A DNA stretch of 64,000 nucleotides from Nitrospirota bacterium. Its GTDB lineage: Bacteria > Nitrospirota > Nitrospiria > 2-01-FULL-66-17. Position 1 is the stretch's first letter; every line of letters begins with the position of its first letter. The translations under genes and the position numbers were made by a program. The notes beneath the pieces are model-generated. The model was not told where the DNA came from. It was given only the letters and a program-made list of their open reading frames with translations, and made no database searches. The stretch is from NCBI GenBank assembly GCA_049325335.1, contig JBMOMC010000001.1:160001-224000 (forward strand). The letters are read 5' to 3'. This document shows positions 1-37,634 of this stretch, one piece after another.

Positions 1-655
1 GGTCGGCCTGGAAATTCGCCTTGCGCAACATCGACAGGTGGGTGTTGCCGATCAACACCATCTTCTCCGAGGTGGCGCGCAATCGGACCAACCGCTCTTT
101 GGTATCCTCCCCCCACAACATGAGGGCCGTGGAATACTCGGTATGTCCGCTAAAGCTCAACCGATCTTCGTAATAGTCTCCTTCCTGCAACGTCACCAAC
201 GGGATGTGATATCGCGTCGCGAGATGGCCGATCAATTTCCCCCAGCGGTTTCGCTCGTGGAGCGCGACGAACACGTCGGGCTGCTCCCGGCGAATAAAGG
301 CTTCGAGGCAAAAATACTCTTCCAAGCCGCTCGACAACAGGCTCGATTGCAGCACCATCGGCCAATGACGAAGCCCGTCCCATTGCGTACACCGCTCCGC
401 CCACAGGTCCCAGAATTCTCGGGTCGCGCCGTCGAGGCGTTGTCGCGTCTCGTCGGTCGCGTACGCCTGGAGGATGCGACACGTTTTGCCCTTCTTGACC
501 AAGTCCCGTTCAAACGGGAAGTCGCCCATCACCGTAAAATACAGCGGGATCGCGCCGCGGCGTTCGAGCTGATCCATCAACGGCGACAGAAACCGCGTGT
601 GATGCGGCAACGCCACGAAACACGCGACCTTTTTCCCCTTGAGATCGCGACTCAT
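1..655 (-). CDS. GT-B-like putative glycosyl/ulosonyl transferase, 3' end beyond the window edge (not in ORF track)
   Basis: Manual translation from ATG at 655 (ATGA overlap with the upstream stop at 652-654) is open to the edge: MSRDLKGKKVACFVALPHH...QPDVFVALHERNRWGKLIGHLATRYHIPLVTLQEG...LMLWGE...IGN. This resembles surface-polysaccharide GT-B proteins. Confidence 0.6.
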   Translation of the reverse strand, partial: MSRDLKGKKVACFVALPHHTRFLSPLMDQLERRGAIPLYFTVMGDFPFERDLVKKGKTCRILQAYATDETRQRLDGATREFWDLWAERCTQWDGLRHWPMVLQSSLLSSGLEEYFCLEAFIRREQPDVFVALHERNRWGKLIGHLATRYHIPLVTLQEGDYYEDRLSFSGHTEYSTALMLWGEDTKERLVRLRATSEKMVLIGNTHLSMLRKANFQAD

Positions 656-1845
656 TCCGGGACCCTCGTGACGATGTTCGAGAGGGTCATCCGCCGCTGT
701 TTGCGCTCGTAGGCCTCGAGCAACATCCGCCGCAACGCGTCCGGAGATCCCGCGAACCCCACGTCGTCGCCGCTGCCGACGGCGCGAGCCAACGGGTTGT
801 ACACGATGCCGGTCTTGCGGTACCGCGCCCCGAAGCTCAGTTGCAACATCGGCTGGGTCGCGACCATCGCGTCGCTTAACATCAGCGCCCGAATCATGCC
901 GGCTGAATCCACCGAGTAGTACGCCCCAATCGTCTTATCCAGGGTGGGTTTGAGCAGGTCGTCGAAGATATCTTTTTCGTGCAACTCCTTCACCGCGAAG
1001 TTCAGGAACACAAAAAACACCGTCGTGGGCACGCCCAGTTTGCCGATCACCGCGAACACTTCCAGGAGTTGTTGACGGTTTCGCACGTGGTTGACGATCA
1101 CGATCCCCAAATGGTCCGCGGGAACCGCGATCTCCTTGTCAAACGTGTGTTGCATGTACACGTCTTCGATCGTGTCGATGCAGTACCGCTCCTTGAGGTC
1201 CTCCAGCACGAACACGCGGTCCGCGGACGCGCCGTCGGCGGTCAACGCCCCCCGCTCCCGTTCATCCTTCACGATGTAGTAGTCCAAGAGCTTCGGGAAG
1301 ATCGGCGGGACGTCCGACGTCGGGTACAGCAGGAGTCCGGCCACGGGCACCCGGTGTTCCTTGGCATAGAACATCACGTTGGTATAGAACACGTCCTGAA
1401 TCGGAGACGGGTGCTCGTGAAACGACGGGATCGGGAACACCATCAAGTCGTACGACTCCGTGATCTTCGGAAACACCGAAGCGGACACGTTCCACAGGAA
1501 ATCGTCGAACCCGACCATCTTCCACAACTTCATATCGGTGCCGGGAATCACGATATCGTGCGTGAGTTTGATGAAGGTTTTGGCGAAATTATCACGCTGC
1601 GCCATGGTCCAAAACCGCTCGTCCGCCTTGGTGAGCCGGACTCGCACCTCGGGCCGCCCGTGATACGACTCGGTGGCGGCTTGCGCCAGGCCGTCGTGGC
1701 ACGTCAGGATATCCACGCGGTGCCCGGCGTCGGCCAGCGCCCCGGCCAGCTTCAGCACGCGACCGCCGGTGGACTGGTGCTCCTTTTCCCCCAGCGGGAA
1801 CAGGATGCGACGCGCGGCGTTACGAGGCGGCGCGTTCTTGGGCAT
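652..1845 (-). CDS. Hypothetical protein, possible GT-B fold glycosyltransferase
   Basis: 397 aa; N-terminal 'GG...LAGALADAGHRVDILT' resembles GT-B N-termini; coupled within the glycosylation operon. Confidence 0.5.
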   Translation of the reverse strand: MPKNAPPRNAARRILFPLGEKEHQSTGGRVLKLAGALADAGHRVDILTCHDGLAQAATESYHGRPEVRVRLTKADERFWTMAQRDNFAKTFIKLTHDIVIPGTDMKLWKMVGFDDFLWNVSASVFPKITESYDLMVFPIPSFHEHPSPIQDVFYTNVMFYAKEHRVPVAGLLLYPTSDVPPIFPKLLDYYIVKDERERGALTADGASADRVFVLEDLKERYCIDTIEDVYMQHTFDKEIAVPADHLGIVIVNHVRNRQQLLEVFAVIGKLGVPTTVFFVFLNFAVKELHEKDIFDDLLKPTLDKTIGAYYSVDSAGMIRALMLSDAMVATQPMLQLSFGARYRKTGIVYNPLARAVGSGDDVGFAGSPDALRRMLLEAYERKQRRMTLSNIVTRVPE

Positions 1846-2389
1846 TCGAGGTCCGGGGGGTATTGATGGCCGTCATCACCTGGTACGCGCGTTGCACCAA
1901 GGGATTCTTGGTGGTCTCCGCGAGTTTGCGGACCACCTCCAGCGTCTGGAGCCTGGTCGCGGACTTGGCGTAGGCCAGCGGAATCAGCGTGGCGAACATT
2001 TCCCGCACGGGGCCGTCCCCGAAAAATTCGTATTCGTAGCGGGCGCGATCGGTTGATCCGTACGAGACCAAATACGACACCGCGGCGCCGAACATGTCGT
2101 CGAACCGCTTTTCTTCCCAACAATAGAGCGTCCGGAGAAAAAGCAGGTCCGCGTGATCCGGTTTGACGCGTAAGCCCTCGACGATGTACGCGTCGGCCTC
2201 GGCGCGCGCGCCTTGTTGCAGCGCGATCTTGGCCAACACCGCCAGGATGCGGAGGTAGACCACGTTGGTTCGGACTTTTTGCGAGGCCTCCACCCCCGCG
2301 AGCGCCGCGAGGAACGATTCTTTCGCGCGGTCGGTCAGGCCCGCCATCAGATACGTCACCGCGGTGTCGTAGTTGGCCTCATACCTCAT
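1820..2389 (-). CDS. TPR-like helical protein
   Basis: 189 aa with a TPR-like pattern (AEADAYIVEGLRVKPDHADLLFL); ATGA overlap with the upstream gene. Confidence 0.55.
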   Translation of the reverse strand: MRYEANYDTAVTYLMAGLTDRAKESFLAALAGVEASQKVRTNVVYLRILAVLAKIALQQGARAEADAYIVEGLRVKPDHADLLFLRTLYCWEEKRFDDMFGAAVSYLVSYGSTDRARYEYEFFGDGPVREMFATLIPLAYAKSATRLQTLEVVRKLAETTKNPLVQRAYQVMTAINTPRTSNAQERAAS

Positions 2390-3099
2390 GCCGCCTCCTC
2401 CATCACGGTCTCAGCCAGCCGGAAATCCAACGGAGTGTTAACGTCGAGCGACTCCGTCTCGTCCATCACGAAGGGAATCACCACGTCGCCGGTGGTCGAA
2501 CGTTTCTCGATCACGGTCGAGGGCTTGAAAATGTAAATGCTCGCGTTCTGGATATACACGTCGGGCAGCCGGTGATACGGCCAGGTCTGTCGGGCCACAC
2601 CGCCGGCCTCGCGCACAAACGGGTGGAGGTACAGTCCATCCGTCGTCCACATCTTGTAGGGGTGTTCGGAACACTTGCGGACCGACCGCAGGGAGTCGGC
2701 TTCCGGATGGGCTAACATGGCCTCCACCGCGCGATCAATGGATTCGGGCCGCCGAAAGGGGGAGGTGGGATACAACAGCACCACCAAATCCGGCACGTAT
2801 CCCTCGTGCGTCTGCAGCCACTGCAACGCGTGATCCACGCACTCCAGTTCCGTGGAATCCGCGGTCGCCAACCCGGCGGGTCGGCGAAACGGCGCCTCCG
2901 CGCCCCACGCCGTGGCCACGCGCGCAATCGGCTCCGCGTCGGTGGACACGATCACGCGGGTGAGTCGCCGCGCGCGCCGCGCAGCTTCGATGGTGTACGA
3001 GAGCAACGGCCGGCCGTGCAACGGCCGGATATTTTTTTTCGGCACCCGCTGCGACCCGCCGCGGGCGGGGATCAACCCCAATATCTGCGTCTCGCCCAT
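2386..3099 (-). CDS. neuA: Acylneuraminate (ulosonate) cytidylyltransferase, NeuA/CMAS family
   Basis: IPARGGSQRVPKKN, STD, RPAGLA, PTSPFR, QNASIY and DVNTPLDF motifs. Confidence 0.9.
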   Translation of the reverse strand: MGETQILGLIPARGGSQRVPKKNIRPLHGRPLLSYTIEAARRARRLTRVIVSTDAEPIARVATAWGAEAPFRRPAGLATADSTELECVDHALQWLQTHEGYVPDLVVLLYPTSPFRRPESIDRAVEAMLAHPEADSLRSVRKCSEHPYKMWTTDGLYLHPFVREAGGVARQTWPYHRLPDVYIQNASIYIFKPSTVIEKRSTTGDVVIPFVMDETESLDVNTPLDFRLAETVMEEAA

Positions 3100-3102
3100 C
3101 CC

Positions 3103-3975
3103 TCACCTCGCAAACAGGCAGTTCGTGACGAACGGCCCCGGATGAAACGGATTCTGATTGTGCACGTATTCCGCGCACAGCTTGAAGCCGGCCCGTTCGA
3201 GCAAACCCGTGATCAGCCCGCCGCCCGGTCGGCCGGTTTCGGTTTCCACCAAAATGGTGCGCAGCAGAGGGTTCGCCACTGTCGCGGCCGCGCCGGTCAA
3301 AATTGCGTATTCGATGCCGTCCACGTCCAACTTGATGTGCCGCGGTTGGGGAATCGCGAACTGTGCGATGAAATCATCCAAGCGGTACCCGAGAATGGGT
3401 TGGCTGTACACGGCGGCGCGCCGCGCGGGCGCCTCCGACGACACCAACTCGTGCAACGCCGCGCCGCTCTCCAGGCTGCCGTACTGCAACGAAGCCAACC
3501 CGGTGCGGTCCGCCAACGCCGCGTGGATCGGGATCACGACGCCTTGAGCCCCATTGAGCGCCACGTTGCGGCTCAGTTGCGCGAAGGTGGCGAACGACGG
3601 TTCGAACGCGTACACCGTGGTCCGCCCGGCCTTGGCGCGCGCGATCGCCAACGCGTACGCGCCCACGTTGGCGCCGATGTCGAAGACCACGTCGCCGGGT
3701 TGGATCCACTGCTCGATCCACCGCGCCATCTCGGGTTCCTTGGCCGCCGAGCGGGTGCGTTTGTCGTATTCGACCCACGACTCCACGTGCAGGAGCACGG
3801 GCCGCGCGGGGTAGTCCATGGGGCGGATCACGGTGAGCGCCTGTTTGATCGCCAACCGCCAGGCGTCGGGCAGCCCGCCCAACACGCGCCGCAGCGCCCC
3901 CACCGCGGCGACAAACGCCTTGCCCCGCCACCTGGGCGCCCACACCCACCGGTATCGCAGCGCGACGGAGCTCAT
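3103..3975 (-). CDS. FkbM-family SAM-dependent methyltransferase
   Basis: DIGANVG, YAFEP and IKLDVDGIE motifs; start placed at ATG 3975 (ATGA overlap with the transketolase stop). Confidence 0.85.
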   Translation of the reverse strand: MSSVALRYRWVWAPRWRGKAFVAAVGALRRVLGGLPDAWRLAIKQALTVIRPMDYPARPVLLHVESWVEYDKRTRSAAKEPEMARWIEQWIQPGDVVFDIGANVGAYALAIARAKAGRTTVYAFEPSFATFAQLSRNVALNGAQGVVIPIHAALADRTGLASLQYGSLESGAALHELVSSEAPARRAAVYSQPILGYRLDDFIAQFAIPQPRHIKLDVDGIEYAILTGAAATVANPLLRTILVETETGRPGGGLITGLLERAGFKLCAEYVHNQNPFHPGPFVTNCLFAR

Positions 3976-5894
3976 CCCTTGACCGGAGACAGCGCGGCCT
4001 TGACCGTCCGCGCGATGCTCTCCCCGTCCAACCCGTGAAAGTGCAACACTTCGGCCGGGGCCCCGCACACGGGCATCCCGGAGACCGCCAGTTTGCGGAA
4101 ACGCCGGTCGCGGAGCGCGTCAGACTCCAGCACCAGATTGGCCAAATGATCCCCCAGGCCGCCGACCGGCGCATGGTTGTCCATCACCGCGATCACGGCG
4201 CAGGCGCCCACCGTCTCCTCGAACCAGCGCGGGTCCACGCGATTGAGCCACGGAAGGTTCACCACTTTGAGCGAGACGCCGTCGGAGGCCAACCGCTCCG
4301 CGGCATGGAGTGCCTCGTACACCATCACGGGGCCGTATGCGAACACCACCGCGTCATGCCCCTCGCGCAGCGCCACCCCGCGCCCCTCGGTCACGCGATA
4401 GTCGTCGGGAAGGTGGATCGGCCCCGGCGAGGGAAACAACGACAGCCGCAGCATGCACGATTCGCGGGCCTCGTTCACGCACCAATCCAACAGCCACGCG
4501 GCCTCTGCGGCGTTGCACGGTTCCACCGCGACGCAACGGGGCAGCGCCCCGAACAACGAGAGGTCTCGAACCGCCTGGTGGGATTGCCCCGCCCCCGCGG
4601 GCAACACCCCGGCATAGTTGCACACGTACAGAACCTTGGTGCCTTCCGACGCGTTGTTGTAAATCTGCTCGTTGGCTCGAGCCGCGAGAAACGCCGAAAA
4701 GGAGTGCACGATCGGCAGATACCCCTGGAGCGCCAAGCCCCCGGCCATGGACACCATGTCTTGTTCCGCGATGCCGTGTTCGACGAACCGGGCGGGAAAC
4801 CGCTCCTCGAACGCCCGCAGCCCGCAATCCGCCGACAGATCCGCGTCGAGCACCACCACGTCCTTACGGCGCTCCCCGATGTCCGTCAACGCCCGGCCGT
4901 ACGCCGTCACGATGCGTTCATCCGAGACCGGGTAGGCGGGACGGCGCTCGACCGCCGGATACTCCAACGCCACGGGGGCGACGCGGCGGTCGCGCAGCCA
5001 CGCGTCGGCCCGGTCCGTTAATTCGCGCACGGCTCGGCCGAACGACTCGTCGTCCGGCGCGCCGGAGTGCCACCGGTACAAGCCGTCGGTCATGGCGGTG
5101 TGCTCCATGAACGACACCCCTTTGCCCTTAATCGTGTCGGCGATCAGGATCTGCGGACGGCCGGTGACCCCGCGCAACGTATTAAACACCTGCCGCAACA
5201 CACGGACGTCATGCCCGTTGCAGCGCTCCACGTGCCATCCGAACGCGCGCAGTTTAGCTTCCAGATCCCCTAGATCCGAAATCTCTTTGACCGGCCGGTC
5301 GGTCTGAATGGTGTTCGCGTCCACGATCACGGTCAACGCGTCCATGCGCTGGTGGGCGGTCGCGCGCAACGCTTCCCAGATCTGCCCCTCTTGGAATTCG
5401 CCGTCCCCGGTGAGCACGAACACTTTGCCACCGCGACCGGACAACCGCTTGGCGTACGCGATGCCCCGCGCCTTGGAGATCCCCATGCCCAACGACCCGC
5501 AGTTGGCCTCGATACCCGGCGTGGTGATCTCCGGGTGCCCCTCCAACCCGCCCAACCGCCGCAACGTGAGCAACGCCCGCGCATCCAACACCCCGGCCGC
5601 GCACAACACCGCGTACTGCGCGGGCGCATCGTGGCCTTTGGACGAGAAAAAAATGTCCCGATTCGGATTGTCGAGCCCCAACTTCGTGGTGTTGAGTTCT
5701 TCGAAATAGAGGTAGGTGAAGAGGTCCATCGAACTCAGGCTGCTGCCGATATGGCCGGATCCCGCGCGTTTGATCGCGGACAAGGCGTTGAGGCGACACA
5801 GGTCGCTGACGATCGTGAGACGATCAAAGCGATCCAGCCCCGCTTCCATGAGCCGGCGGAACTCCGACGCCGGAACAAACGGAATCCCGTTCAT
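3972..5894 (-). CDS. Transketolase-family TPP enzyme (fused N- and C-terminal domains)
   Basis: GSGHIGSSLS, SKGH, GSLGMG, TPP motif GDGEFQEGQIWEA...N, TIKGKG, GIAEQDM. Confidence 0.9.
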   Translation of the reverse strand: MNGIPFVPASEFRRLMEAGLDRFDRLTIVSDLCRLNALSAIKRAGSGHIGSSLSSMDLFTYLYFEELNTTKLGLDNPNRDIFFSSKGHDAPAQYAVLCAAGVLDARALLTLRRLGGLEGHPEITTPGIEANCGSLGMGISKARGIAYAKRLSGRGGKVFVLTGDGEFQEGQIWEALRATAHQRMDALTVIVDANTIQTDRPVKEISDLGDLEAKLRAFGWHVERCNGHDVRVLRQVFNTLRGVTGRPQILIADTIKGKGVSFMEHTAMTDGLYRWHSGAPDDESFGRAVRELTDRADAWLRDRRVAPVALEYPAVERRPAYPVSDERIVTAYGRALTDIGERRKDVVVLDADLSADCGLRAFEERFPARFVEHGIAEQDMVSMAGGLALQGYLPIVHSFSAFLAARANEQIYNNASEGTKVLYVCNYAGVLPAGAGQSHQAVRDLSLFGALPRCVAVEPCNAAEAAWLLDWCVNEARESCMLRLSLFPSPGPIHLPDDYRVTEGRGVALREGHDAVVFAYGPVMVYEALHAAERLASDGVSLKVVNLPWLNRVDPRWFEETVGACAVIAVMDNHAPVGGLGDHLANLVLESDALRDRRFRKLAVSGMPVCGAPAEVLHFHGLDGESIARTVKAALSPVKG

Positions 5895-7396
5895 GACGCT
5901 CTCCTTTCACCGTCCGCCACGAATTGCACGTTCTGAATCCTCGCGCTGTAATCCACGTACAAGGTTTTGACCTCGGAAAAGGCTTCGATAGCGGCCCACC
6001 CGGCCTCGCGATGGCCGAGCCCCGACTGTTTCAGCCCGCCGAACGGAAGGTGGGCTTCGGACCCGAACGTGGGCGCGTTGACGTAACACACGCCCGCTTC
6101 CGCGTCGGCGAAAAACGCGAACGCCTGGTTCACGTCCGCGGTAAACACCGACGCGGCCAGCCCGTACAAGGACGTGTTGTGAATGCGGATCGCGTCTTCA
6201 TAGGATTCGGCCGGGAACACGGTCAACACCGGGCCGAACACCTCCTCGCGCGCGATCTCCATATCCGGCGACACCTGATCCACGATCGTAGGCGCCACGT
6301 AATACCCCTGGTCGTACACGCCGCCTTTCAACCGCTCTCCGCCCACGACGATGCGGCCGCCTTCGGCGCGGCAGCGCGCGAGATACCCCATCACGCGATC
6401 ACACTGCGCGCGGCTGATCAGCGGGGTCACATCCGACAGCGCGTCCGAGCCCGGGCCCACGCGAAGCGCGGACGTGCGCCGAATCACCCGGTCCAACACC
6501 GCCGTGTACACGGATCGGTGCACGATCACCCGGCTGGTCGCGGTGCACCGCTGTCCGGACAGGGAAAACGCCCCGGAGACCACGCCCTCCGCGGCCAAGT
6601 CCAGATCCGCGTCCGGCATCACGATCACGGCGTTTTTCCCGCCAAGCTCCAGGGACACTTTGGCGAGCCGGGCCGCGCAGTTGGCGGCCACGATCCGACC
6701 GACCGCGCTGGAGCCGGTGAACGAAATCATGGCCACCTGCGGATGCCGGGTCAGCGCCTCGCCCGCTTCGGGGCCCTCGCCGTGCACCACGTTGAACACG
6801 CCGGGCGGCAACCCCGCGTCGTGGAGAATTTCGGCCAACCGCACCGCGGTCTCGGGCGTGCGTTCCTCCGACTTGAGCACCACGGTGTTGCCGCACACCA
6901 GCGCCGGAAACGCCTTCCAGCACGTAATGGCCATCGGAAAATTCCACGACGTGATGATGCCGACCACCCCGATCGGCGCGCGCGTGGTCATGGCGAACCG
7001 CCGCCGCAATCCCGAGTGCGTGGTGCGCCCGTACCAGCGTTTGCCCTCGCCGGCCGCGAACTTGGCCATCTCAACCCCGGACTGTACATCGCCCACCGCG
7101 GCTTTGACGGTTTTCCCGTTTTCCCGCGAGATCACTTCCGCCAGGTCGTTGCGCCGCGCGGCAAGCGCGCGACCCGCCTCGGCGATCAGGTCCGCCCGGT
7201 CGGACGGCGATACCGCCGCCCACTCGCCGCGCGCCTTCACCGCGGCCGCGACCGCGCGGTCCACGTCGCGCGCGGTTGAGCGCGGATACACGCCCAAGAC
7301 GGACGCGATGTCCGACGGGTTGACGTTCTCGAAGGTCCGCCCCGACTCGGAGGGCGCCCATTGGCCGCCGATGTAATTGTGATAGGTCTGCGCCAT
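5891..7396 (-). CDS. NAD(P)-dependent aldehyde dehydrogenase
   Basis: WNFP, FTGS, LELGGKN, catalytic GQRCTA, EEVFGPV, PFGGLKQSG; GAGGAGG RBS before ATG 7396. Confidence 0.93.
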   Translation of the reverse strand: MAQTYHNYIGGQWAPSESGRTFENVNPSDIASVLGVYPRSTARDVDRAVAAAVKARGEWAAVSPSDRADLIAEAGRALAARRNDLAEVISRENGKTVKAAVGDVQSGVEMAKFAAGEGKRWYGRTTHSGLRRRFAMTTRAPIGVVGIITSWNFPMAITCWKAFPALVCGNTVVLKSEERTPETAVRLAEILHDAGLPPGVFNVVHGEGPEAGEALTRHPQVAMISFTGSSAVGRIVAANCAARLAKVSLELGGKNAVIVMPDADLDLAAEGVVSGAFSLSGQRCTATSRVIVHRSVYTAVLDRVIRRTSALRVGPGSDALSDVTPLISRAQCDRVMGYLARCRAEGGRIVVGGERLKGGVYDQGYYVAPTIVDQVSPDMEIAREEVFGPVLTVFPAESYEDAIRIHNTSLYGLAASVFTADVNQAFAFFADAEAGVCYVNAPTFGSEAHLPFGGLKQSGLGHREAGWAAIEAFSEVKTLYVDYSARIQNVQFVADGERRAS

Positions 7397-7407
7397 GCGG
7401 AGCCTCC

Positions 7408-8235
7408 TCACCAACAGCTATAACCGCCGTCCACCACCAGGTTCGCGCCGGTCATGTAGGACGACGCGTCCGAACAGAGAAAGAGCACCGCCGCGTTGTA
7501 TTCGTCGGGACGCGCCATCCGCCCCAGCGGCACCTTCTGGCTGTATCGTTTCACGAACAGGTCGTCCTGTCGGTTGTAGACGCCGCCCAACGTGAGCGTG
7601 TTGACCCGCACGTTGCGGGCGGCCCAATAGGTGGCCAAATACCGCGTCAGATTGAGGATTCCGGCTTTGGTCGCTGAATACGCCGCGGGCTTTACGAACG
7701 GCGTGTCCCGACGCTGATCCTCGTAGATGCGCTGATCCGGCGACAACAGCCCGTAGATCGAGGAGATGTTAATGATGCTGCCGCCCCGGCCCGCGGCCAT
7801 CGCGCCGCCAACCACTTGGCAACACAAAAACACCCCGGTCAGGTTCACGTCCACCATCGCGCGCCACGAGGCTTCCTGGTAGGTCTCAAACGGCCCGGTG
7901 TCGTTCCGGCCGGCATTGGGCGGAGCGTCGATCGCCGCGTTGTTGATCAAGATCGACGGTTCGCCGAATCGCGCGCGCACCGCGGCCAACCCCTCCTCGA
8001 TCGACGCCTTGCGGCTCACGTCCACGGCCGCGGTCATGACGCGATCCGTGGGCAGGTTCGCGAGCGCGGACTTGGGGTTCTCCGGCGCCACGTCGAACGC
8101 GGCCACGCGCGCGCCCGCGTCCGCCAACGCCGCGGCGTACTGGCCGCCCAGTTGGCCCGCCGCACCGGTGACCACCGCGATCCGGTCCGACAGATCGAAC
8201 CGGACGCGCGTGCGGACCTCGCACTCGGGTGTCAT
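7408..8235 (-). CDS. Short-chain dehydrogenase/reductase (SDR)
   Basis: TGAAGQLG, NNAA, NISS, YSATK and VDGG motifs; start ATG 8235 by ATGA coupling (the ORF-track extension overlaps GT41). Confidence 0.9.
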   Translation of the reverse strand: MTPECEVRTRVRFDLSDRIAVVTGAAGQLGGQYAAALADAGARVAAFDVAPENPKSALANLPTDRVMTAAVDVSRKASIEEGLAAVRARFGEPSILINNAAIDAPPNAGRNDTGPFETYQEASWRAMVDVNLTGVFLCCQVVGGAMAAGRGGSIINISSIYGLLSPDQRIYEDQRRDTPFVKPAAYSATKAGILNLTRYLATYWAARNVRVNTLTLGGVYNRQDDLFVKRYSQKVPLGRMARPDEYNAAVLFLCSDASSYMTGANLVVDGGYSCW

Positions 8236-10469
8236 GCCGCCACCGCCTGGCGGACGCGCGCCGTGTCGCAATACCGCCGCCACATCGTCCGATACGCCTC
8301 CTCCAGCGCGCGAGTAAACGCGGCGCCGCCGCACAACGGGGATGCCGCCATGCGCCCGCGCAACTCGGAGCGCACCGCGGCCAACCGGCCCGGATCGCGC
8401 GCCCACGCGGTGGCGATCCGTACGTACGCGTCCGAATCCCCCGCCACCAGATCCGCCAGGCCCACCCGCGAGACCAGGCTCGCCGACATGCGCCCCGCGT
8501 GGCGCGCGCCGAGGAGGGTCACCACCGGCACGCCCATCCACAAGGCCTCGCAGGTGGTGGTGTGTCCGTTCCACGGAAACGCGTCCAACGCCACGTCGAT
8601 CTGGTGGTACACGGAGAGAAAACTCGCGCCGACCGACCGCGTGTTGAACAGGTCCACGCGCGACGGGTCGATCCCGCGCGCGACGAATGCCGCGCGATAC
8701 CGCTCTTGCACCGCGCCCTTGAGCGTGTTGCGAAACACCAGCAGCCGCGACGAGGGAGTGGCGTCCAACACGCGGCACCACAGGGCGATCACCTCGTCGT
8801 TGAGTTTGGCCAAATCATTGAGGGACCCGAACGTCACCGCGCCGCGCGAACCCGCGGGTGACGCCGACACCGGCGGCGCGTCGTGGTCGGGCTCATAACA
8901 CGCGAAGCCGTTGGGCAGGCGGACCAGCGCTTCGCTGTAGTACGCCTCCTGCCCCGGCGGATCCGCGATCGCGTCGGTGAGACGGTAGTCCACCGTGTTC
9001 AGCCCGGTGGTGTTGGGGTATCCGAGATACGTCGCTTGGATCGGCGCGGGCTTCTGCGCCAACACCAACAACCGGTTCTTGCGCGTGTGACCGGCCAAGT
9101 CAACCAGGATGTCGATGTGATCCGACCGGATGAGGTCCGCCACCTCGCCGTCCGAACGGCCGCAGATGTCGCGCCACGAGCCGGACAACCCGCGCAAGCG
9201 CTCGGTCACCGCGTCTGTCGCGCCGACGTCCGCGTAACACGTCACCTCGACGTCGGTCCGGTTGTGGTACGACAAGATCGGCGCGAGAAAACACGCCACC
9301 GGATGACGGCGAAAATCCGGCGACAGATACCCGATACGCAGCCGCCGATCCGGGGTGCGGTCCGTCCGGTCCGACGGCGCGATCACCGCGAGGCCGGCGT
9401 GCGTCGCGGCCCATCGGCGGTGTTCGGCGAACAACTCCTCGGACGAGACCGCCGGGTGATAGTTGAGCGTGTAGACGAGGTTGCTGTGCGCCTCGACGAA
9501 CCCCGGGGCCAGACGGATCGCCTCGCGATAGTCCGCGAGCGCCCCGTCGATCTCACCCGCGTCTTTATACGCGTTTCCCCGATTGTTGTACGCCTCGGCG
9601 AACGACGGATTGGCAGCCAGCGCGCGCGCAAAACACGGCAACGCCTCATCCACCTCGCCCAACTCTTGGAGCGCCAAGCCGAGGTTATTGTGCGCCTCGG
9701 CGAGTTCGGGAACGATCGCCAGCGCCCTGCGGTAGGAGGCCATCGCCTCGTCATACCGTCCGAGATCCCGCAGCAGATTCCCCACGTTGTTGTGCGCTTC
9801 CGGAAACTCCGGGTTCAATCGCAACGCGTCGCCGTACGCGGCAACCGCCGCGTCGGATCGTCCCTGCGCGCGCAGGACGTTGCCCAGGCTGTAGTGGGCC
9901 TGCGCGAACTCGGGTTTGAGACGAATCGCGGCTCGAAAACACGCGGCCGCTTCGTCCCACCGGCCCTGCGCGCGCAACGTGTTGCCCAGGCTGTAATGGG
10001 CCTTGACGTGTTCGGGCCACTGCGTCAGCAACGCGCGAAAACAGGCCTCGGCCTCCGCCGACCGCCCCCCGCTTTTGAGCGCCGCGCCCAATCGGTACTG
10101 GATATCCGCCACCGTGGGCGCCAGGTCCCGGGCCCACCCCAATAAGTCGATCGCCGCGTCCCACCGGCCCTGGCCGTACAACAAACTCCCCAGTCCGGCG
10201 TAGAACGACGCCTCGATGGCGGCCAACGGCAACGGCAACGCGGGCCCGGCGCCTCCGTCGGAGTTCGCCCCTCGGCAATGGGCGAGCAGTCCGTTCAAAT
10301 GGAGCGCGTACGGATCATCCGGACTGGCCCGCAGGAGATTTCGACACCAAGTCTCGGCCTCCTCGATCCGTCCGGCGCGATACGCGCGCGCGGCGGACGT
10401 GAGCGTCTCGGCGCGTCCTCCGGACGCGCCGTCCCGAATCGCGACCGTATCAGGAACCGCGCGGCTCAT
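8232..10469 (-). CDS. TPR-containing GT41 (SPINDLY/OGT-like) protein glycosyltransferase
   Basis: Multiple tandem TPRs (AHYSLGN, AHNNLG) followed by RIGYLSPDFRRHPV, DILVDLAGHT, PAPIQATYLGYPNTTG, DAFPWNGHTTTCEALWMGVPVVTL. Confidence 0.9.
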   Translation of the reverse strand: MSRAVPDTVAIRDGASGGRAETLTSAARAYRAGRIEEAETWCRNLLRASPDDPYALHLNGLLAHCRGANSDGGAGPALPLPLAAIEASFYAGLGSLLYGQGRWDAAIDLLGWARDLAPTVADIQYRLGAALKSGGRSAEAEACFRALLTQWPEHVKAHYSLGNTLRAQGRWDEAAACFRAAIRLKPEFAQAHYSLGNVLRAQGRSDAAVAAYGDALRLNPEFPEAHNNVGNLLRDLGRYDEAMASYRRALAIVPELAEAHNNLGLALQELGEVDEALPCFARALAANPSFAEAYNNRGNAYKDAGEIDGALADYREAIRLAPGFVEAHSNLVYTLNYHPAVSSEELFAEHRRWAATHAGLAVIAPSDRTDRTPDRRLRIGYLSPDFRRHPVACFLAPILSYHNRTDVEVTCYADVGATDAVTERLRGLSGSWRDICGRSDGEVADLIRSDHIDILVDLAGHTRKNRLLVLAQKPAPIQATYLGYPNTTGLNTVDYRLTDAIADPPGQEAYYSEALVRLPNGFACYEPDHDAPPVSASPAGSRGAVTFGSLNDLAKLNDEVIALWCRVLDATPSSRLLVFRNTLKGAVQERYRAAFVARGIDPSRVDLFNTRSVGASFLSVYHQIDVALDAFPWNGHTTTCEALWMGVPVVTLLGARHAGRMSASLVSRVGLADLVAGDSDAYVRIATAWARDPGRLAAVRSELRGRMAASPLCGGAAFTRALEEAYRTMWRRYCDTARVRQAVAA

Positions 10470-10999
10470 GCCGGCACGTCCATCGCGACGCGATGCGACG
10501 CGAGCAGCCAATCGCACAGCTCCCGCACCGCGCCTTCCCCGCCGCGGCGCTCGGTCACCCACGCCGCGGCGCGGAGCGCGTCCGGGTGGGAATCGCGCAC
10601 GCACACCGGGACCCCGACCATAATGAGGCAGTCCACGTCATTGACGTCATTGCCCAGGTACGCCGCGTCCGACAGGGGCACGCCCAACCGTTCCGCCTCC
10701 GCGCGCAGCGTCTCGGCCTTGCGCTCGCACCCCTGAATGCAGCGCACCCCGAGTTTCTCGCACCGCACGGTCACGATCGGATTTTTCTCGGCGGAGAGCA
10801 CCAACGCGTCGATGCCCCGGCGCGCGAGGGCTTGCAACCCCAGGCCGTCCGCGCGACTGCACCAGACCGCTTCCCGACCGTCCTGAAACACCAACACGCG
10901 GTTGTCCGTGAATACGCCGTCGAAATCAAACACCGCCAGACGCACCGACCCGACGCGGACGCCCGGTGTCCGACGACGCGCCGTGGTCGCGCGCTTCAC
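10466..10999 (-). CDS. KdsC-family HAD phosphatase (ulosonate-phosphate phosphatase)
   Basis: FDFDGVFTD, DGLG, GNDVND and GGEGAVRE motifs; GTGA overlap with the neuB stop. Confidence 0.88.
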   Translation of the reverse strand: MKRATTARRRTPGVRVGSVRLAVFDFDGVFTDNRVLVFQDGREAVWCSRADGLGLQALARRGIDALVLSAEKNPIVTVRCEKLGVRCIQGCERKAETLRAEAERLGVPLSDAAYLGNDVNDVDCLIMVGVPVCVRDSHPDALRAAAWVTERRGGEGAVRELCDWLLASHRVAMDVPA

Positions 11000-12075
11000 G
11001 CCGCCTTCTTCCGCGCGTCCGCGGCCGCGACTTCCACGTCATCGGCCCGAATCAACGCGTCCGGCACCAGATCCCGCTTTAACCGTTTCCCCAGCAGCTC
11101 GTGGATGCGCGAGGGCGGCAACCCGCCGTCCGGAGATTTGATCGCGATGTCCGCCTGCCCCAACACCGCGCCGCTCGCGAGCGCCCGGGCCGCGTACAGA
11201 CTCTTGCCCATCTTGGCGCGCGCGTCGCGCTCAAAGTCACGCACCACTTTGGTCCCGTCGCCGAGCGACGCGTCCACGCGCCGCAGATCGCGGATCATCT
11301 TATGGAGGCCGGTCGGCTCGAGCGAAAACTTGTGATCGGTGCCTTTCCACGCGCGGTTCAACGTAAAGTGCTTTTCCACCACCACCGCGCCCAACAAGTA
11401 GGCGACCACCGGCGCAAGGATGCCGTTGTCGTGGCCCGAGTACCCGATGATGGTGGACGGGAACTCGCGCCGCAGCGTGGAGATGGCGCGTAAGTTCAGG
11501 TTTTCGTATTCCGTGGGGTACCCCGCGGTGCAGTGCAAGAGGCAAAATTGATCGTGGTGCGCGCGGATCGCGTCATGCGCGGTGCGGACTTCCTCCAGCG
11601 ACGCCGCGCCGGTGGAGACCACCATGGGTTTGCCCAATTTCGCCACGTAGGTCAGCAGCGGCGTGTTGGTGACGTCGCCGGAGGCGATCTTGTACCCGGC
11701 AATCCCGAGTTTTTCCAGGAAATCCACGCTCGCGAAATCAAACGGCGTGACCAAGAACTCCACCTCGTTGTCCTCGGCGCACGCTTTGAGCTGGACGTAC
11801 TCGTTCCACCCGAACTCCAAAAAGTCCCGGTGCTGTCCGTAGGTGGCGCCGTAGCTGTTCTCGTTGTCGTACGGGCGATCGTACATGGCCTTGGTGTAAA
11901 GGGACTTGTTATCGCGTTTCTGAAATTTCACGGCGTTAACGCCCATGCCCGCCGCGATCTTGATCATGCTAAGCGCGGTCTTGAGATCGCCCTGATGGTT
12001 ATTGCCGATCTCGGCGATGACGTAACACGGTCCTTGTTCGGATACAGTGGTCCGTCCGAGGGTGAATCCCTTCAT
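10996..12075 (-). CDS. neuB: NeuB-family nonulosonate(-phosphate) synthase with C-terminal AFP-like domain
   Basis: IAEIGNNHQGD, VKFQK, KIASGD, STG, LHCT..YP, GYSGH, EKHFTL; GGAGG RBS before ATG 12075. Confidence 0.92.
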   Translation of the reverse strand: MKGFTLGRTTVSEQGPCYVIAEIGNNHQGDLKTALSMIKIAAGMGVNAVKFQKRDNKSLYTKAMYDRPYDNENSYGATYGQHRDFLEFGWNEYVQLKACAEDNEVEFLVTPFDFASVDFLEKLGIAGYKIASGDVTNTPLLTYVAKLGKPMVVSTGAASLEEVRTAHDAIRAHHDQFCLLHCTAGYPTEYENLNLRAISTLRREFPSTIIGYSGHDNGILAPVVAYLLGAVVVEKHFTLNRAWKGTDHKFSLEPTGLHKMIRDLRRVDASLGDGTKVVRDFERDARAKMGKSLYAARALASGAVLGQADIAIKSPDGGLPPSRIHELLGKRLKRDLVPDALIRADDVEVAAADARKKAA

Positions 12076-12124
12076 CGGTCTCCTCCGGTTAACACCCGAC
12101 ACCGCCACTCCCGGTTCTTGCGGC

Positions 12125-12140
12125 TGCAATCGTGATGCCA
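12125..12140 (-). promoter_or_regulatory. Putative sigma54 (-24/-12) promoter of the glycosylation operon
   Basis: Minus strand TGGCATCACGATTGCA = GG-N10-GC, about 50 bp upstream of neuB. Confidence 0.7.
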
Positions 12141-12257
12141 TCGACAGGTCGCGCCCATTCGCGGATTTCGGTCGAGCCGATCCTCTCGCTAGGTCGTTTT
12201 TGCCGGGTGCTAGGAAAATTGGATCAGACGCCGCTGGCGGCGTCGCTGGACAGCCTG

Positions 12258-13475
12258 CTACCGGAGGAAGTTCAGAAACGACGAGTTGAACAATCGCGAC
12301 GCCATGGTCCGCGTGGCTTGGAGCACGTTCTGCTGGAACATCAGATCCGATACCGCGCGATCCAAATCCACGTCCCCGGTCTCCGAACGGAATCGCGCGG
12401 CCACGACTTTGAGATCCTCGAACGTCGTCACGGTCGCGTCCATCCCATTGAGGCGCGCTCCCACCAGGGCTCGCTCGCTGTTGAGCTGCTCCATCGCCGT
12501 GCTCAAGTCCGTGAGCGCGGTTTCCATCCCGGGAATGTCGTCGTTCTGCAACGCGATTTGCAATCCGGCCACCGCGGATAGAACATCCACGCCTCCGGAC
12601 ACCCCCGCGCCCAGGAACAACCGATCGCCGGGCAAATTTTTCACCACGCTTTCTTGCGCGCCGGTCAACACGGACATCTCATTGGAGTCGCCCAGATAGG
12701 TCCCCGCGGGTTCGTTCGTCCCCGCAGCCAACCCCAACCCGGCGAGCGCCCCGCCCGCGGTCGGACTCACCGCCGACGCGCCGCCGGTCGCATCCGACGT
12801 GATCACCAGATGGTCCGTATCAAACGTCACGCTCACGGACCGCCCCGCGGCCGCCAAGGTGGGATCCGCGTTCACCACGCTCTCCACCATGGTCGCGAGC
12901 GACGCCCCGGTCGCGTACGCGCCGCTGGTGAGCGTCACCGTGGTCGAGACGCCGTCAACCGACAGGGTCAAGTCATCCGTCCCCGGGGCGACGGTCACGG
13001 GAAACGCGAGCGCGGTCCCGGTGTACCGCCCGTTGACCACAAACGGTTGGGTGGACGTTTCGTACCCGGAGAACACGTACCGCCCGTCGTGGACCGTATT
13101 GCCCACCGCCACCATGTGATCGAAGATTTCACTGACCTCGCGAGCCGCGTTGGCGCGATCTTCCGGCGTGTTGGTGCCGTTGATCATCTGCAGCGCCAGT
13201 TCGCGGGCGCGGATCAACTGGTCCTGCGCGGACGATAACGCGCCCTCGCTGGTGGATATCCAGGCCTCCGCGTCCGCGATATTGCGCAGGTACTGGTCGG
13301 CCGAGGCCAGCGTGGTCTCGTAGTTGAGCAGTTGCGCGTGTTTGATCGGATCATCGGAGGGCTGATTGATTTTCTTCCCGCTCGACACCTGATCTTCCAA
13401 ACGCAGCACCGCCGCGGATTGACGCTGCATGTGCCCCACCAAGGACTCGAAGATCATGCGTTCCGAAACGCGCAT
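12258..13475 (-). CDS. flgL: Flagellar hook-associated protein 3
   Basis: SSGKKINQPSDDP N-terminus, GRYVFSG, flagellin-like C-terminus; follows flgK. Confidence 0.93.
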   Translation of the reverse strand: MRVSERMIFESLVGHMQRQSAAVLRLEDQVSSGKKINQPSDDPIKHAQLLNYETTLASADQYLRNIADAEAWISTSEGALSSAQDQLIRARELALQMINGTNTPEDRANAAREVSEIFDHMVAVGNTVHDGRYVFSGYETSTQPFVVNGRYTGTALAFPVTVAPGTDDLTLSVDGVSTTVTLTSGAYATGASLATMVESVVNADPTLAAAGRSVSVTFDTDHLVITSDATGGASAVSPTAGGALAGLGLAAGTNEPAGTYLGDSNEMSVLTGAQESVVKNLPGDRLFLGAGVSGGVDVLSAVAGLQIALQNDDIPGMETALTDLSTAMEQLNSERALVGARLNGMDATVTTFEDLKVVAARFRSETGDVDLDRAVSDLMFQQNVLQATRTMASRLFNSSFLNFLR

Positions 13476-20669: not shown

Positions 20670-20685
20670 AGCAACTTCAATGCCA
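20670..20685 (-). promoter_or_regulatory. Putative sigma54 promoter of the flgF operon
   Basis: TGGCATTGAAGTTGCT = GG-N10-GC, about 40 bp upstream of flgF. Confidence 0.75.
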
Positions 20686-27529: not shown

Positions 27530-28999
27530 TTACGCGGCGCGCCGTCGGACACCGTGCTGTTCTCCCCGCGGATCGGCCGCAGCATGACCGCGGAACTCTC
27601 CGATCAGCCCATCCAACTCCCCGGCCATCTTGGCGAGGCCTTGGCTGGCGGCCAGGACGTTCGCCGCGCCCTCGGTGGTGCCGCGCGAGGCGGTCGCTAC
27701 GCCCGCGATGTTCTCCACCACCTCGCCCGTGCCCCGCGCCGCCTCCGCCACGCTCCGGCTGATCTCCGTGGTCGTCGCCGCCTGCTCTTCCACCGCCCCC
27801 GCGATCGTGGTCGCAATTTCGTTGATCCGCCCGATGATGCCCCCGATCTCCCCGATCGCCGTCACCGCGCCCTGCGTGTCCGCTTGGATCGCGTCGATCT
27901 TGCGTTCGATCTCCTCGGTGGCCTTGGCGGTTTCCTTGGCCAACTCTTTGACCTCATTGGCCACCACCGCGAACCCCTTGCCCGCCTCGCCCGCCCGCGC
28001 CGCCTCGATCGTGGCGTTGAGCGCCAACAGGTTGGTCTGCTGCGCGATCGACGTGATCACTTTGATCACTTTCCCGATCTCCGCGCTCGATTCGCCCAAT
28101 TTCCCGATCGTGCGGTTGGTGCTTTCGCTGACCTGCACGGCTTGCGCGGTGACGCGGGTCGCGTCCTGCACGTTTTTGGAGATCTCTTTGATCGTCGCGG
28201 TCATCTCTTCCGCCGCGGTCGCCACGCTCTGTACGTTCTGGTTGGTCTGCTCGCTCGCCGTGGAGACCGTGCTCGCCTTCGCCGTCGCGTCCTCCGAACT
28301 AAGGCGCAACTGCTGGCTGGAGGCCGAGAGTTCTTCCGACGCGGCCGCGAGATGCCCGGCCACCTCGGTGATCCGTGTGAGCAGGCGTTTGAAATCGGCC
28401 TGCTCCTCCTGCAGTTTGTGTTGCTCAGCGAGTTGCTGTGAGACGACGTTCGCGATGTAGGTGTCGATCGCCAACTCCATGTCGAAGAAAACGACCTTCA
28501 TCACCGACTGAAGCGCCTGGAGGAGTTCCCCCTCTCCGCGAGCGCTCCTGCGCCACCCGCTCGCGCCGAATTCCTCGAACAACGCTTGCGTGACCAACCG
28601 CAGATAGAGGTTGTACGCGCCGAGGTACCACTGGGGCGTGATGTTTTCCCGAACGTGGGTCAGGCCGATCTTGACCCGATCCTCCACGTAGTCGCGATCG
28701 TATCGTCCGTCAAAGAGTTGCGAGAAATACGCTTTCTGGACGCCTTTGAGCCGACGCACCGTCGCCTCATTCGGCAGATGCGCCGCCGTATCCTGAAATC
28801 GCAGAAAGTGCTCGTACATCGTGTCGATGATGTGATCGACCTTGGAGGCCAACTTCGGGCCGATGCGCTGCAGGCGCTCCGCGTCGGCCGAACCGAATTC
28901 CAGAAAGTCCTTGCGGGTCTGCACCCCCCGCTGGTCGTGGAGATCGGACAACCCGCCCGTCCCGGCCGTCTCGGCCCCATCATCGTGTGTGGCTCTCAT
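27530..28999 (-). CDS. Soluble globin-coupled chemoreceptor (HemAT-like protoglobin + MCP signal domain)
   Basis: IIDTMYEHF (B10 Tyr), [10 protein letters not shown] (proximal His), [46 protein letters not shown]; no TM segment. Confidence 0.9.
27642..28350. repeat. Direct repeat copy 1 (709 bp, MCP signalling domain)
   Basis: Apparently identical to 29226-29934 (offset 1584) by eye. Confidence 0.88.
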
Positions 29000-29149
29000 G
29001 TCGCCTCCCTGGCTCCTGGTCTTCCAATGGACATTCCCTCCTCCGTGAGCCGCGGCCCGCTCGTTCAGGCCGCCATTCACCGTCGGGCATGCCCGCCATG
29101 GTCTCGGTCGCCTCGCGGGCGCCCCGCGAGGGTCACAACCTCATGCCGC

Positions 29150-35471: not shown

Positions 35472-37634
35472 TCATGCCGCCTGCACTCCCGGTTGGACGT
35501 CACTAGAAGCCGGTTTGGCGCCTCCCACCGGCAAGACCACGCGAAACCGCGTGCCTCGGCCTGGTTGGCTTTCTACCTCGATCGTGCCGCCGTGGTTGTG
35601 AACAATGCCGTACGAGATCGACAGACCTAACCCCGTACCCTTGCCCACGGGTTTGGTCGTAAAAAATGGGTCAAAAATCTTCTTGAGGTGCTCCGGAGCG
35701 ATTCCACTCCCGGTATCCTCCACCTCCGCCACCACGGACTGGGCTTGCACAAAGGTCCGGACCCAAATCGTTCCCTTGTCCTTGATCGCTTGCGCCGCGT
35801 TGACCAGCAGATTGACAAACACCTGATTGAGTTGCTGCGGATACCCCAGAATTTCAGGAATATCGCCCATCTCCTTGATAATGTCGGCCTTGTATTTCAA
35901 CTCGTTCCAAACAATCGCGAGCGTGCTCTCGATCCCTTGGTTAATGTTGACCCATGCCTGTTCCTGGCGGTCGACATGAGAAAACGTCTTGAGATTCTGC
36001 ACGATCTGGCGCACCCGATCGAGACCCTCGGAGGACTGCTGTACCAGCGTGGAGAGATCCTCCAGTAAGAACCCCATGTCGACTCGCTTGACCAGCTCGC
36101 GCGTCCGCTTGGCCTCGAGTGCGGCGGCCTCCATGCTCCCGGTTTCAACCGCCGCCAACAGGGTTTCATAGCCGCCGATCACCTGCACCAGGTCCTCGGT
36201 ATACTCCGCCAGGGTCCGTAGGTTGCTGCTCACGTAGCCGATCGGGTTATTGATTTCATGCGCCACCCCGGCGGCCAACTGCCCGATCGACGCCATTTTC
36301 TCGGACTGCAGGAGATGCCCCTGGGCTTCCTTGAGTTCCGCGTAGGCCTGTTGCAGCGCCTCCTCCGACTGCTTTCGCGCCGTGATGTCCTCGGCGATCC
36401 CGGTGATCCGATACACGTGTCCGTGTTCGTCCCGAATCGGGAAGGCCCGATCCAGAATCCAGCGCACCTCCCCGGTAGGCCGCACGATCCGATACTCTTC
36501 GTGGTACGCCCCGGTCACCTGTTTGGTCGTGGCCGCCTCCAACACCCGGGACCGATCCTCCGGATGAATGGCGTCGACCCATGCCTGCGGTGAGGCTAGG
36601 AGGATGTCGCGCGGACGACCCCAAATACCGTCGCAGGTCGGACTGATGTAGAGTATTTGGTTCGTGGTGGTGTCGGTCATCCAAAACACGGCATGGATAC
36701 TTTCCGTGACCTGGCGGAACCGCTCTTCGCTTTCCTGGAGTTGCTCTAAGGCCCGCCGGTGCTCCGTAATGTCGTCGACCGTCAACAGCATCCGCGCGGC
36801 GTCATCCTCGGTGCGCTCGATCGCGGTCCCAACCACGCGCAGGACGCGCACATCACCGGCACGGTTGTACGGCATGACCACGTCGCGTTGGGCGCCCACA
36901 GCCCCCAACAACTCCGCCAGGACGTCCCACCAATGCACGCCCGGCAACACCTCTTCCAGCGGTCGGCCTCGCAAATCCTCGTGAGTCCGCCCGATGATGT
37001 CGCGGACCTTGCGATTGGATGAGAGCACCAGGAGGTCGGCCGACAGCACGAACGTGCCGATCGGCACGCTGGCCATGACCTTCTCGATCGCTCGTTTGAG
37101 TTTCTCAACGGTTTGCAGTTTCGCGTAGACATACGTGTCGACCCCAATTCCCAGGTCCAGCAACACCACCTTCATGAAGGCGCCGAACGCGTCCACCGAC
37201 ATGCCGGGTGCCGGCTCGCGCGCCGACACCTCCTGGAGCAGGCTGGAGAGATATTTGGCGTACGCGCCGATGGAATACTTGGGCGCCAGGCCGAGACTCT
37301 GATGGACCAGGCCGATACGGATCCGATCCTCGACGTACGCCTGGTCATACTCCCCGGACGTGAGGCTGTCAAAATACGCGGCCTGCGCCTGCTGGACCCG
37401 CGCGAGCAACGCAGGATCGGTCAAAAACCGCGCCGTATCCTCAAAGGCCAGCAGGTGTCCGTAAAACGGCTCCAGGAGGCGCGGCGAGGCGGCTGCCAGG
37501 TGCGGCCGCAGGTTCCGTAACGTCTCAATCTCGTTGGGCCCGAGTTCCAGGAAGGCCTTACGGCTCGCGAGCTCGGCGGCATCGAGCCCGATCCCCTTGG
37601 CAATGGATTTGACTAGCTGATCTAACAGCCCCAT
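35472..37634 (-). CDS. Globin-coupled PAS-PAS sensor histidine kinase
   Basis: Protoglobin ([27 protein letters not shown]); two [37 protein letters not shown]. Confidence 0.9.

Follow-up and report, generated by a model that had tools for sequence, protein, structure and literature searches.

In the genome of a Nitrospirota bacterium (assembly GCA_049325335.1), an operon of 11 co-directional minus-strand genes joins a sialic acid-type pathway to a short-chain dehydrogenase/reductase (SDR), a transketolase (TK) and an aldehyde dehydrogenase (ALDH). The stretch analysed, referred to as the window, covers 64,000 nucleotides of contig JBMOMC010000001.1 (positions 160,001 to 224,000 of the forward strand; G000:C1:160001-224000) in a host genome of 3.25 Mb that is 99% complete. 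The core of the operon, consisting of NeuB, a HAD phosphatase, SDR, ALDH, TK and a CMP-synthetase, is a conserved mobile module that recurs in many unrelated bacteria and is not specific to the flagellum. As a tentative proposal, still some way short of probable, such modules would define a widespread, undescribed branch of sialic acid biosynthesis, in which TK cuts the tail of 2-keto-3-deoxynononic acid (KDN) to give CMP-activated seven-carbon ulosaric acids, or amino-ulosonates where aminotransferases take part, for flagellin, polysaccharides and a nonribosomal peptide synthetase (NRPS) product. This would be the first enzymatic route to heptulosaric acids and a model for how 3-deoxy-D-lyxo-hept-2-ulosaric acid (Dha) is made.

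Transcription runs in the order NeuB, HAD, tetratricopeptide repeat (TPR)-GT41 protein, SDR, ALDH, TK, FkbM, CMP-synthetase and three open reading frames (ORFs) of 189, 397 and 668 aa. The initial annotation had described these genes as following flgL and had named their families, and all the ORFs are indeed present. Pfam matches (E<=0.001) were obtained for nine of the 12 proteins scanned, FlgL included, and cover NeuB+SAF, KdsC-like HAD, TPR+GT41, SDR, ALDH, full-length transketolase, FkbM and CTP_transf_3, while three operon ORFs had no match. The seven junctions that had been read as overlaps are all of 4 bases, six ATGA and one GTGA, and the gene order confirms that TK, ALDH, SDR and the methyltransferase lie between the synthase and the CMP-activating enzyme.

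The synthase and the phosphatase look like those of the known KDN-9-phosphate route. The synthase (10996..12075, minus strand; 359 aa from its likely start) is a NeuB-family protein with a SAF domain (PF03102 and PF08666) of predicted phospho-substrate (NanS/KDN-9-P) type. Asp134 occurs in 75 of 76 aligned rows and Arg314 is kept in only two; according to the accessible text of PMC8208679, eukaryotic NanS shows the E134D change together with R314 loss, and E134D is proposed to accompany a phosphorylated substrate. The HAD phosphatase (10466..10999, minus strand) carries a KDN-9-phosphate-phosphatase signature, with E71/K82 aligned to E56/K67 of 3e81, where KdsC 4um5 has R/E, and the equivalent residues are invariant across 63 of 63 rows. 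PDB entries 4hgq and 4hgr have Ala at exactly these two sites, and E56/K67 presumably set the KDN9P specificity of BT1713. The CMP-ulosonate synthetase (2386..3099, minus strand; PF02348) is NeuA-like rather than KdsB-like, as its best PDB matches are NeuA/CMP-Neu5Ac synthetases with an E value of 1e-32 versus 2e-7 for KdsB. Close homologues of the synthase run into the thousands: of 8000 scored, 3916 reached E<=1e-100. The cultured Thermosulfuriphilus ammonigenes has one at 66%.

A pseudaminic (Pse) or legionaminic (Leg) acid pathway does not account for the locus, as had been stated from the start. The dehydratase, pyridoxal phosphate (PLP)-dependent aminotransferase, acetyltransferase and hydrolase are absent among the 11 genes. 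Inspection of the ORFs by eye, without a Pfam scan, over 50 kb beyond the left edge revealed none of the first three and no NeuC, and instead of canonical pse, leg or neuC genes the region there holds flagellin, fliD and fliS. Furthermore, the synthase scored below the NeuB_NnaB and PseI cut-offs (239.8 of 340.25 bits for PseI) and the CMP-synthetase below that of PseF (131.6 of 205.7 bits). As the synthase and phosphatase fit the known KDN-9-phosphate route, the novelty would therefore lie in the SDR-TK-ALDH triad.

The TK (3972..5894, minus strand) is a fused paralogue with a rewired acceptor/phosphate site. Alignment to human TK (4kxu) showed that the thiamine and donor residues are kept (equivalents of H37, H77, H110, GDGE, N185, H258 and E366) and that His stands at the Q428/H473 site in 30 of 30 cassette rows, while human R318, S345, H416, D424 and R474 are replaced in the window enzyme by V329, D356, Y427, A435 and L486. 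The D424 and R474 equivalents are lost in 30/30 cassette rows and kept in 62/62 housekeeping-type rows (C-terminal halves), and they are also missing from all 14 rows of Ignavibacteria TKs. The cassette rows include the window, one Streptomyces row and the second partial TK of locus L124, with three partial TKs excluded. Human and Escherichia coli residues are taken to correspond (human D424 to E. coli D469), as are their roles in binding phosphate and hydroxyl groups. In the accessible text of PMC7661550, R358, S385, D469 and R520 of E. coli TK are sites whose change shifts the acceptor range, which makes the window TK a natural enzyme altered at four sites that engineers mutate for unphosphorylated acceptors. 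The same text names H100, which is Phe in 1-deoxy-D-xylulose 5-phosphate (DXP) synthase, as the residue separating TK from that enzyme; a DXP synthase role for the window TK was ruled out, as the equivalent His120 is kept. A housekeeping role was likewise ruled out by a separate canonical TK in the genome that keeps all these residues, and canonical TKs also occur alongside the altered ones in five of the five Ignavibacteria genomes tested.

The altered acceptor site argues for action on a dephosphorylated ulosonate and against a sugar-phosphate precursor. The initial annotation had left open whether the enzymes tailor a non-standard precursor or product; the product side is now favoured, while the precursor side has lost ground. 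A scheme in which SDR, TK and ALDH act first and supply NeuB with an unusual aldose phosphate for condensation with phosphoenolpyruvate (PEP) is decidedly improbable, even though TK can free aldoses from ketoses and the NeuB clade is distinct enough (3/401 phylum genomes) to have its own substrate, since the phosphate-site residues of TK are lost, ALDH would consume the aldehyde that NeuB requires, the HAD retains nine-carbon (KDN9P) signatures, and neither isomerase nor kinase is co-conserved in the neighbourhood clustering described below.

The SDR (7408..8235, minus strand) is a classical enzyme of NAD type, predicted from profile matches and catalytic residues to be an ulosonate side-chain dehydrogenase. 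An Asp after beta-2, typical of NAD use, is found together with the NNA, S and YxxxK elements in 53 of 53 rows. Sugar-acid and polyol dehydrogenases are among its generic, sub-threshold matches, and most of those listed are sugar dehydrogenases that act on secondary alcohols (gluconate 5-dehydrogenase, D-mannonate oxidoreductase and GolD/DthD; generic scores). The ALDH (5891..7396, minus strand, start ATG 7396; PF00171) has intact catalytic residues, N152, K175, E250 and C284 being present in 34/34 rows, and its best NCBIfam matches, again sub-threshold, are the alpha-ketoglutaric semialdehyde and 2,5-dioxovalerate dehydrogenases, both of which act on omega-aldehydo-2-oxo acids. Because ALDH works only towards the acid and TK handles only ketols and aldehydes, the only order in which all three would act one after another is SDR (alcohol to ketose), TK (ketose to shorter aldehyde) and ALDH (aldehyde to acid).

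Conservation of the SDR, ALDH and TK linkage, which the initial annotation had proposed as a check, proved strong. Scanning metagenomes with NeuB yielded 292 confirmed relatives, of which the best 80 were kept for neighbourhood counts; 23 loci had at least 8 kb 3' of NeuB, two of them being identical copies. These long loci carried SDR in 23 cases, ALDH in 22, HAD in 21, TK in 21 and CMP-synthetase in 11, with HAD, SDR, ALDH and TK all together in 20, compared with FkbM in four, GT41 in two and the three terminal genes in one. When 633 ORFs from 49 loci were clustered, only the six module families appeared in at least 17 loci each; a generic epimerase family followed with 15, and no co-conserved isomerase, kinase, aminotransferase, transporter or sialidase emerged. 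Around similar NeuB and SDR genes, the TK is drawn from three lineages and the ALDH likewise from three; two of the TK lineages are fused and one is split, the split one having roughly 25-30% identity across the C-terminal half. Since the lineages are swapped and yet 27 of the 28 TK-bearing loci typed keep an ALDH, the TK-ALDH pairing is functional. One locus holds two TK lineages, as a split-type C-terminal half directly follows the fused cassette TK (L124:7250-8101).

Within the phylum of the window genome, three of 401 genomes contain the module. Nearly the whole operon, terminal genes included, recurs in genome G022 and locus L184, and G022 also has GT41. Candidatus Scalindua sp. AMX11 gave matches to both NeuB and TK. 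Among the 80 best loci of a TK search over genome contigs, one, from a Gemmatimonadales genome (L003), contains the module and the rest are mostly unrelated TKs, so the coverage of named genomes is poor. A plasmid search gave 165 records with a match, and among the 20 matches listed one exceeded 41%. No description of the gene combination or of the tailoring step was found in the literature searched, subscription journals and supplements being outside its scope.

Variant clusters pair the same enzymes with aminotransferases. In five of five tested Ignavibacteria genomes with an altered TK, a member of the same SDR family (46-49% identity) lies beside a short NeuB elsewhere. All four regions fetched (L235:4539-9937, also L236-L238) contain, in this order, a transferase-like gene, an SpsF-like cytidylyltransferase, a class-III aminotransferase, the SDR, a HAD and the short NeuB, which makes the cluster a candidate amino-KDN pathway. 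Melioribacter sp. Ez-97, a cultured strain, also has the aminotransferase variant. Among 151 genomes of the Ignavibacteria phylum, the altered TK was present in three and the SDR in 28, all three being among the 28; one of these genomes was the search centre, and relatives do not count as independent. A plasmid of Streptomyces sp. NBC_01237 (NZ_CP108509.1; L200:2600-17400) bears NeuB, SDR and altered TK together with a HAD and a PLP aminotransferase in an NRPS cluster, where neither ALDH nor CMP-synthetase was seen (three genes identified by BLAST, the others read by eye). A possible product is an ulosonate-derived amino-sugar or imino-acid building block. The same NRPS cluster also holds P450-, methyltransferase- and HmaS/Hmo-like genes. 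The clusters with an aminotransferase would form a carbonyl on the ulosonate and then cap it.

These variants bear on another explanation, namely that the glycan is ordinary KDN or N-acetylneuraminic acid (Neu5Ac) and that SDR, TK and ALDH serve salvage or deal with by-products, either by degrading excess ulosonate or by clearing free glycolaldehyde. NeuB, HAD and NeuA already complete a known pathway, the ALDH matches are catabolic semialdehyde dehydrogenases and altered TKs are found outside the cluster as well, but translational coupling within biosynthetic operons points to tailoring, aminotransferases replace ALDH in the variant clusters, and the clustering revealed neither transporter nor sialidase, so that this explanation appears very unlikely.

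The pathway proposed here, which falls just short of probable, is the oxidation of KDN at C8, removal of C8-C9 by TK and oxidation of C7 by ALDH, leading to CMP-3-deoxy-L-arabino-hept-2-ulosarate. NeuB would condense PEP with mannose 6-phosphate, as suggested by the signatures (N-acetylmannosamine 6-phosphate being an alternative), and the HAD would strip the 9-phosphate, as E56/K67 suggest. The NAD-type SDR would then oxidise C8, the penultimate carbon, and create a HOCH2-CO-CHOH end that is a transketolase donor. The tail of KDN is mannose-configured, and in Fischer labels 8-oxo-KDN read from C9 was computed to be L,R,R, like D-fructose, with D-xylulose having the same end geometry. TK would take off C8-C9 as thiamine-bound glycolaldehyde and leave an aldehyde at C7, next to the ring oxygen and without phosphate, which fits the loss of Asp and Arg from the TK. 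Irreversible oxidation of C7 by ALDH would pull the two preceding steps and yield 3-deoxy-L-arabino-hept-2-ulosaric acid, with CMP added by the NeuA-like enzyme before or after the three tailoring steps. Additionally, FkbM may O-methylate the sugar, GT41 may add a separate N-acetylhexosamine, and the 668-aa and/or 397-aa proteins would likely transfer the sugar to Ser/Thr-rich flagellin.

Several observations weigh against this pathway. The substrate of every step is a deduction from sequence. The HAD reaches 78.3 bits against a cut-off of 180 for the NCBIfam KDN-9-P phosphatase model and scores higher for KdsC models, and the SDR and ALDH profile matches are generic and all below cut-off. The split-type cassette TKs retain H416 and S345 in 11 of 30 rows and R318 in eight of 30. 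The 14 Ignavibacteria TKs with the same altered site have no NeuB within 10 kb, and two viral contigs carry NeuB, SDR, CMP-synthetase and TK without an ALDH match. Finally, the lost Asp would equally fit a forward reaction on an aldehyde at C9, whose C8 has a non-standard L geometry. Both viral loci (L207:3213-8829 and L206, from IMG/VR) show the order NeuB, SDR, CMP-synthetase, TK and FkbM between terminase-like and portal-like genes on phage-like contigs.

The objection from the lost Asp belongs to a different chemistry, in which SDR oxidises the primary C9 alcohol of KDN or CMP-KDN, whereupon ALDH gives a nine-carbon diacid and/or TK adds two carbons to form an eleven-carbon ulosonate. With no phosphate on its aldehyde and L geometry at C8, this scheme likewise agrees with the loss of both Asp and Arg, and the clusters of SDR with a class-III aminotransferase recall KdnB/KdnA. 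Higher-carbon CMP-ulosonates exist in Magnetospirillum, albeit C10, N-acetylated and Pse/Leg-like, with no genes given in the accessible text of the two reports (PMC8157484; bioRxiv 10.64898/2026.04.20.719630) and the word transketolase absent from that of the latter. Here ALDH and TK would be rivals for a single aldehyde instead of acting in sequence, yet 27/28 TK loci keep both, and the listed SDR matches, generic as their scores are, are mostly enzymes of secondary alcohols; the C9 chemistry is therefore considered rather unlikely, and cleavage after C8 oxidation is the preferred reading in what follows.

Flagellin is probably the target of the sugar in the window genome, as the initial annotation had suggested. 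The operon sits between its upstream neighbour, the hook-junction gene flgL (12258..13475, minus strand; TIGR02550 above cut-off), and the single flagellin gene of the genome. The left window edge interrupts the gene for the 668-aa protein, which ends at G000:C1:158649; a gap of 178 bases separates it from flagellin, fliD and fliS, with a sigma-28-like box 5' of flagellin that was called by what is taken to be the sigma-28 consensus. This flagellin is the only FliC match of the genome, and its variable region contains 29% Ser+Thr versus 18-19% at the ends. The flagellin of G022, which shares the three terminal genes, is 57.5% identical to it over 518 aa.

Against a flagellar role, flgL precedes only four of the 33 loci whose upstream sequence extends to 3 kb or more and has no match in the other 29, so that the module as such is not tied to the flagellum; the near-identical operon of G022 does not lie on its flagellar contig; and a second NeuB locus, Pse/Leg-like, on contig C7 could feed flagellin too. 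That second locus (L083:11300-20000, G000:C7) belongs to a polysaccharide cluster with genes for NeuB, a dehydratase, a PseC-like aminotransferase, a PseG-like protein, an SpsF-like cytidylyltransferase, and WbqC-like and deacetylase-like proteins. The same chemistry might thus serve lipopolysaccharide (LPS), an exopolysaccharide or another surface protein, with the flagellar position being incidental, and most homologous loci do lie among polysaccharide genes (wzx/ABC-export, CDP-sugar and glycosyltransferase genes). Such a target is nevertheless unlikely in this genome, as the operon fills the flgL-fliC gap of a flagellar island that is missing from three of three same-genus genomes, is preceded by a sigma-54 motif like that before rod genes, and has neither flippase nor polymerase. 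In these three genomes, which are 98-99% complete, flagellin and FlgL matches are missing and the synthase type of the window was not found.

The likelier ulosonate transferases are two unannotated proteins with predicted GT-B folds. The 668-aa protein (beginning of the window, 1..655, minus strand) combines a GT-B domain of the Capsule_synth/Glyphos_transf/Epimerase_2 kind with a GT2-like domain and, by domain and fold comparison, is a candidate flagellin ulosonyl-transferase; it has 120 homologues at E<=1e-20, and among them there is no function shown by experiment. Nitrospirota, magnetotactic ones among them, commonly carry members of its family (L085:4-2007), with identities of 37-59%; the cultured Dissulfurispira thermophila has a homologue at 49%. 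The 397-aa protein (652..1845, minus strand) is a candidate transferase whose predicted fold compares with GT-B families at 0.95-0.96 by Atlas features and a TM of about 0.62-0.66. Both predicted GT-B folds lie near the capsule Kdo-transferase and glycerophosphate-transferase families, and BLAST detected no similarity between the two proteins. A 189-aa TPR-like protein (1820..2389, minus strand), a possible adaptor with weak, sub-threshold TPR matches, accompanies the 397-aa and 668-aa genes in G022 and L184. The Maf family (PF01973) had no match in the 99% complete genome, a weak test because the model is named MptE-like and matched only four archaeal controls.

GT41 and FkbM, previously counted among the pathway parts, are both present, but their occurrence in two and four of the 23 long loci marks them as accessories. 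GT41 enzymes use UDP-sugars, and this property together with presence in 2/23 loci tells against the TPR+GT41 protein (8232..10469, minus strand; Pfam), O-GlcNAc-transferase-like, as the ulosonate transferase. FkbM (3103..3975, minus strand; TIGR01444 above cut-off) belongs to a methyltransferase family and may carry out O-methylation.

Compared with known systems, the locus would represent the KDN-9-phosphate route plus a tailoring arm; it does not belong to the Pse, Leg, Ela or Kdo8N systems. With the KDN-9-phosphate pathway (the Bacteroides thetaiotaomicron synthase, BT1713 and CMP-KDN synthetase; eukaryotic NanS/NanP) it shares a phospho-type synthase, an E56/K67-type HAD and a NeuA-like CMP-synthetase, but it adds the linked SDR, altered TK and ALDH, keeps the SAF domain and scores below the curated cut-offs. 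The Shewanella Kdo8N pathway employs the dehydrogenase KdnB and the aminotransferase KdnA, and thereby also places a carbonyl on a finished ulosonate and caps it, the logic followed by the Ignavibacteria variant; the window differs in having a NeuB/KDN scaffold, an SDR instead of KdnB, and TK and ALDH instead of an aminotransferase. Flagellin glycosylation islands for Pse and Leg use Maf or FlmG transferases. Like them, the window has genes for an ulosonate synthase, a CMP-synthetase and transferases beside flagellin, but it lacks amino-sugar steps, its candidate transferases are unannotated GT-B proteins and its genome has no PF01973 match. FlmG consists of a TPR flagellin-binding part and a GT-B catalytic part; in the window a GT-B fold is predicted and a TPR-like gene is adjacent, a FlmG-like arrangement being possible.

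To our knowledge, NeuB pathways leave the backbone at nine carbons and differ only in substituents and stereocentres. The elaABC and aciABCD genes of Acinetobacter baumannii, for 8-epilegionaminic and acinetaminic acids, resemble the window in that oxidoreductases tailor the nonulosonate tail; they need lgaABCDEF and only invert stereocentres, in contrast to the window, which has no lga genes and possesses a C-C cleaving or forming enzyme. ElaA is described as a putative oxidoreductase for 8-epilegionaminic acid in the accessible text of PMC9676051. Dha, a constituent of rhamnogalacturonan II, algae and some LPS, is a seven-carbon ulosaric acid of the same formula as the predicted product, which would be its isomer and not Dha itself, namely L-arabino (R,L,L) if the aldose is mannose, against D-lyxo (L,L,R). 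The activated form of Dha was listed as unidentified in 2012, according to the accessible text of PMC3355719. If true, cleavage or extension of the carbon backbone once condensation is complete would be chemistry new to glycobiology and would explain many loci automatically named N-acetylneuraminate synthase that are unable to make Neu5Ac; the module also gives exact masses for CMP-sugar surveys and a model for heptulosaric acid synthesis.

The operon lies behind a putative sigma-54-type promoter motif, TGGCAT-N5-TTGCA (12125..12140, minus strand; strict pattern match). The initial annotation was right that the motif exists, at 12140-12125, but the ATG of the longest synthase ORF, at 12141, overlaps it, and for this reason the NeuB start is most likely 12075, behind GGAGGAG. 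Across the 3.25 Mb of the genome the strict pattern occurs 10 times, three of these inside the window, which is mostly a flagellar and chemotaxis island; the further two stand at 20685 (minus strand) and 53291 (plus strand), and one is just 5' of an flgF-like rod gene. The remainder of the window (12258-64000) comprises the complete flagellar/chemotaxis island, with two protoglobin-domain sensors at 27530-29080 and 35472-37634.

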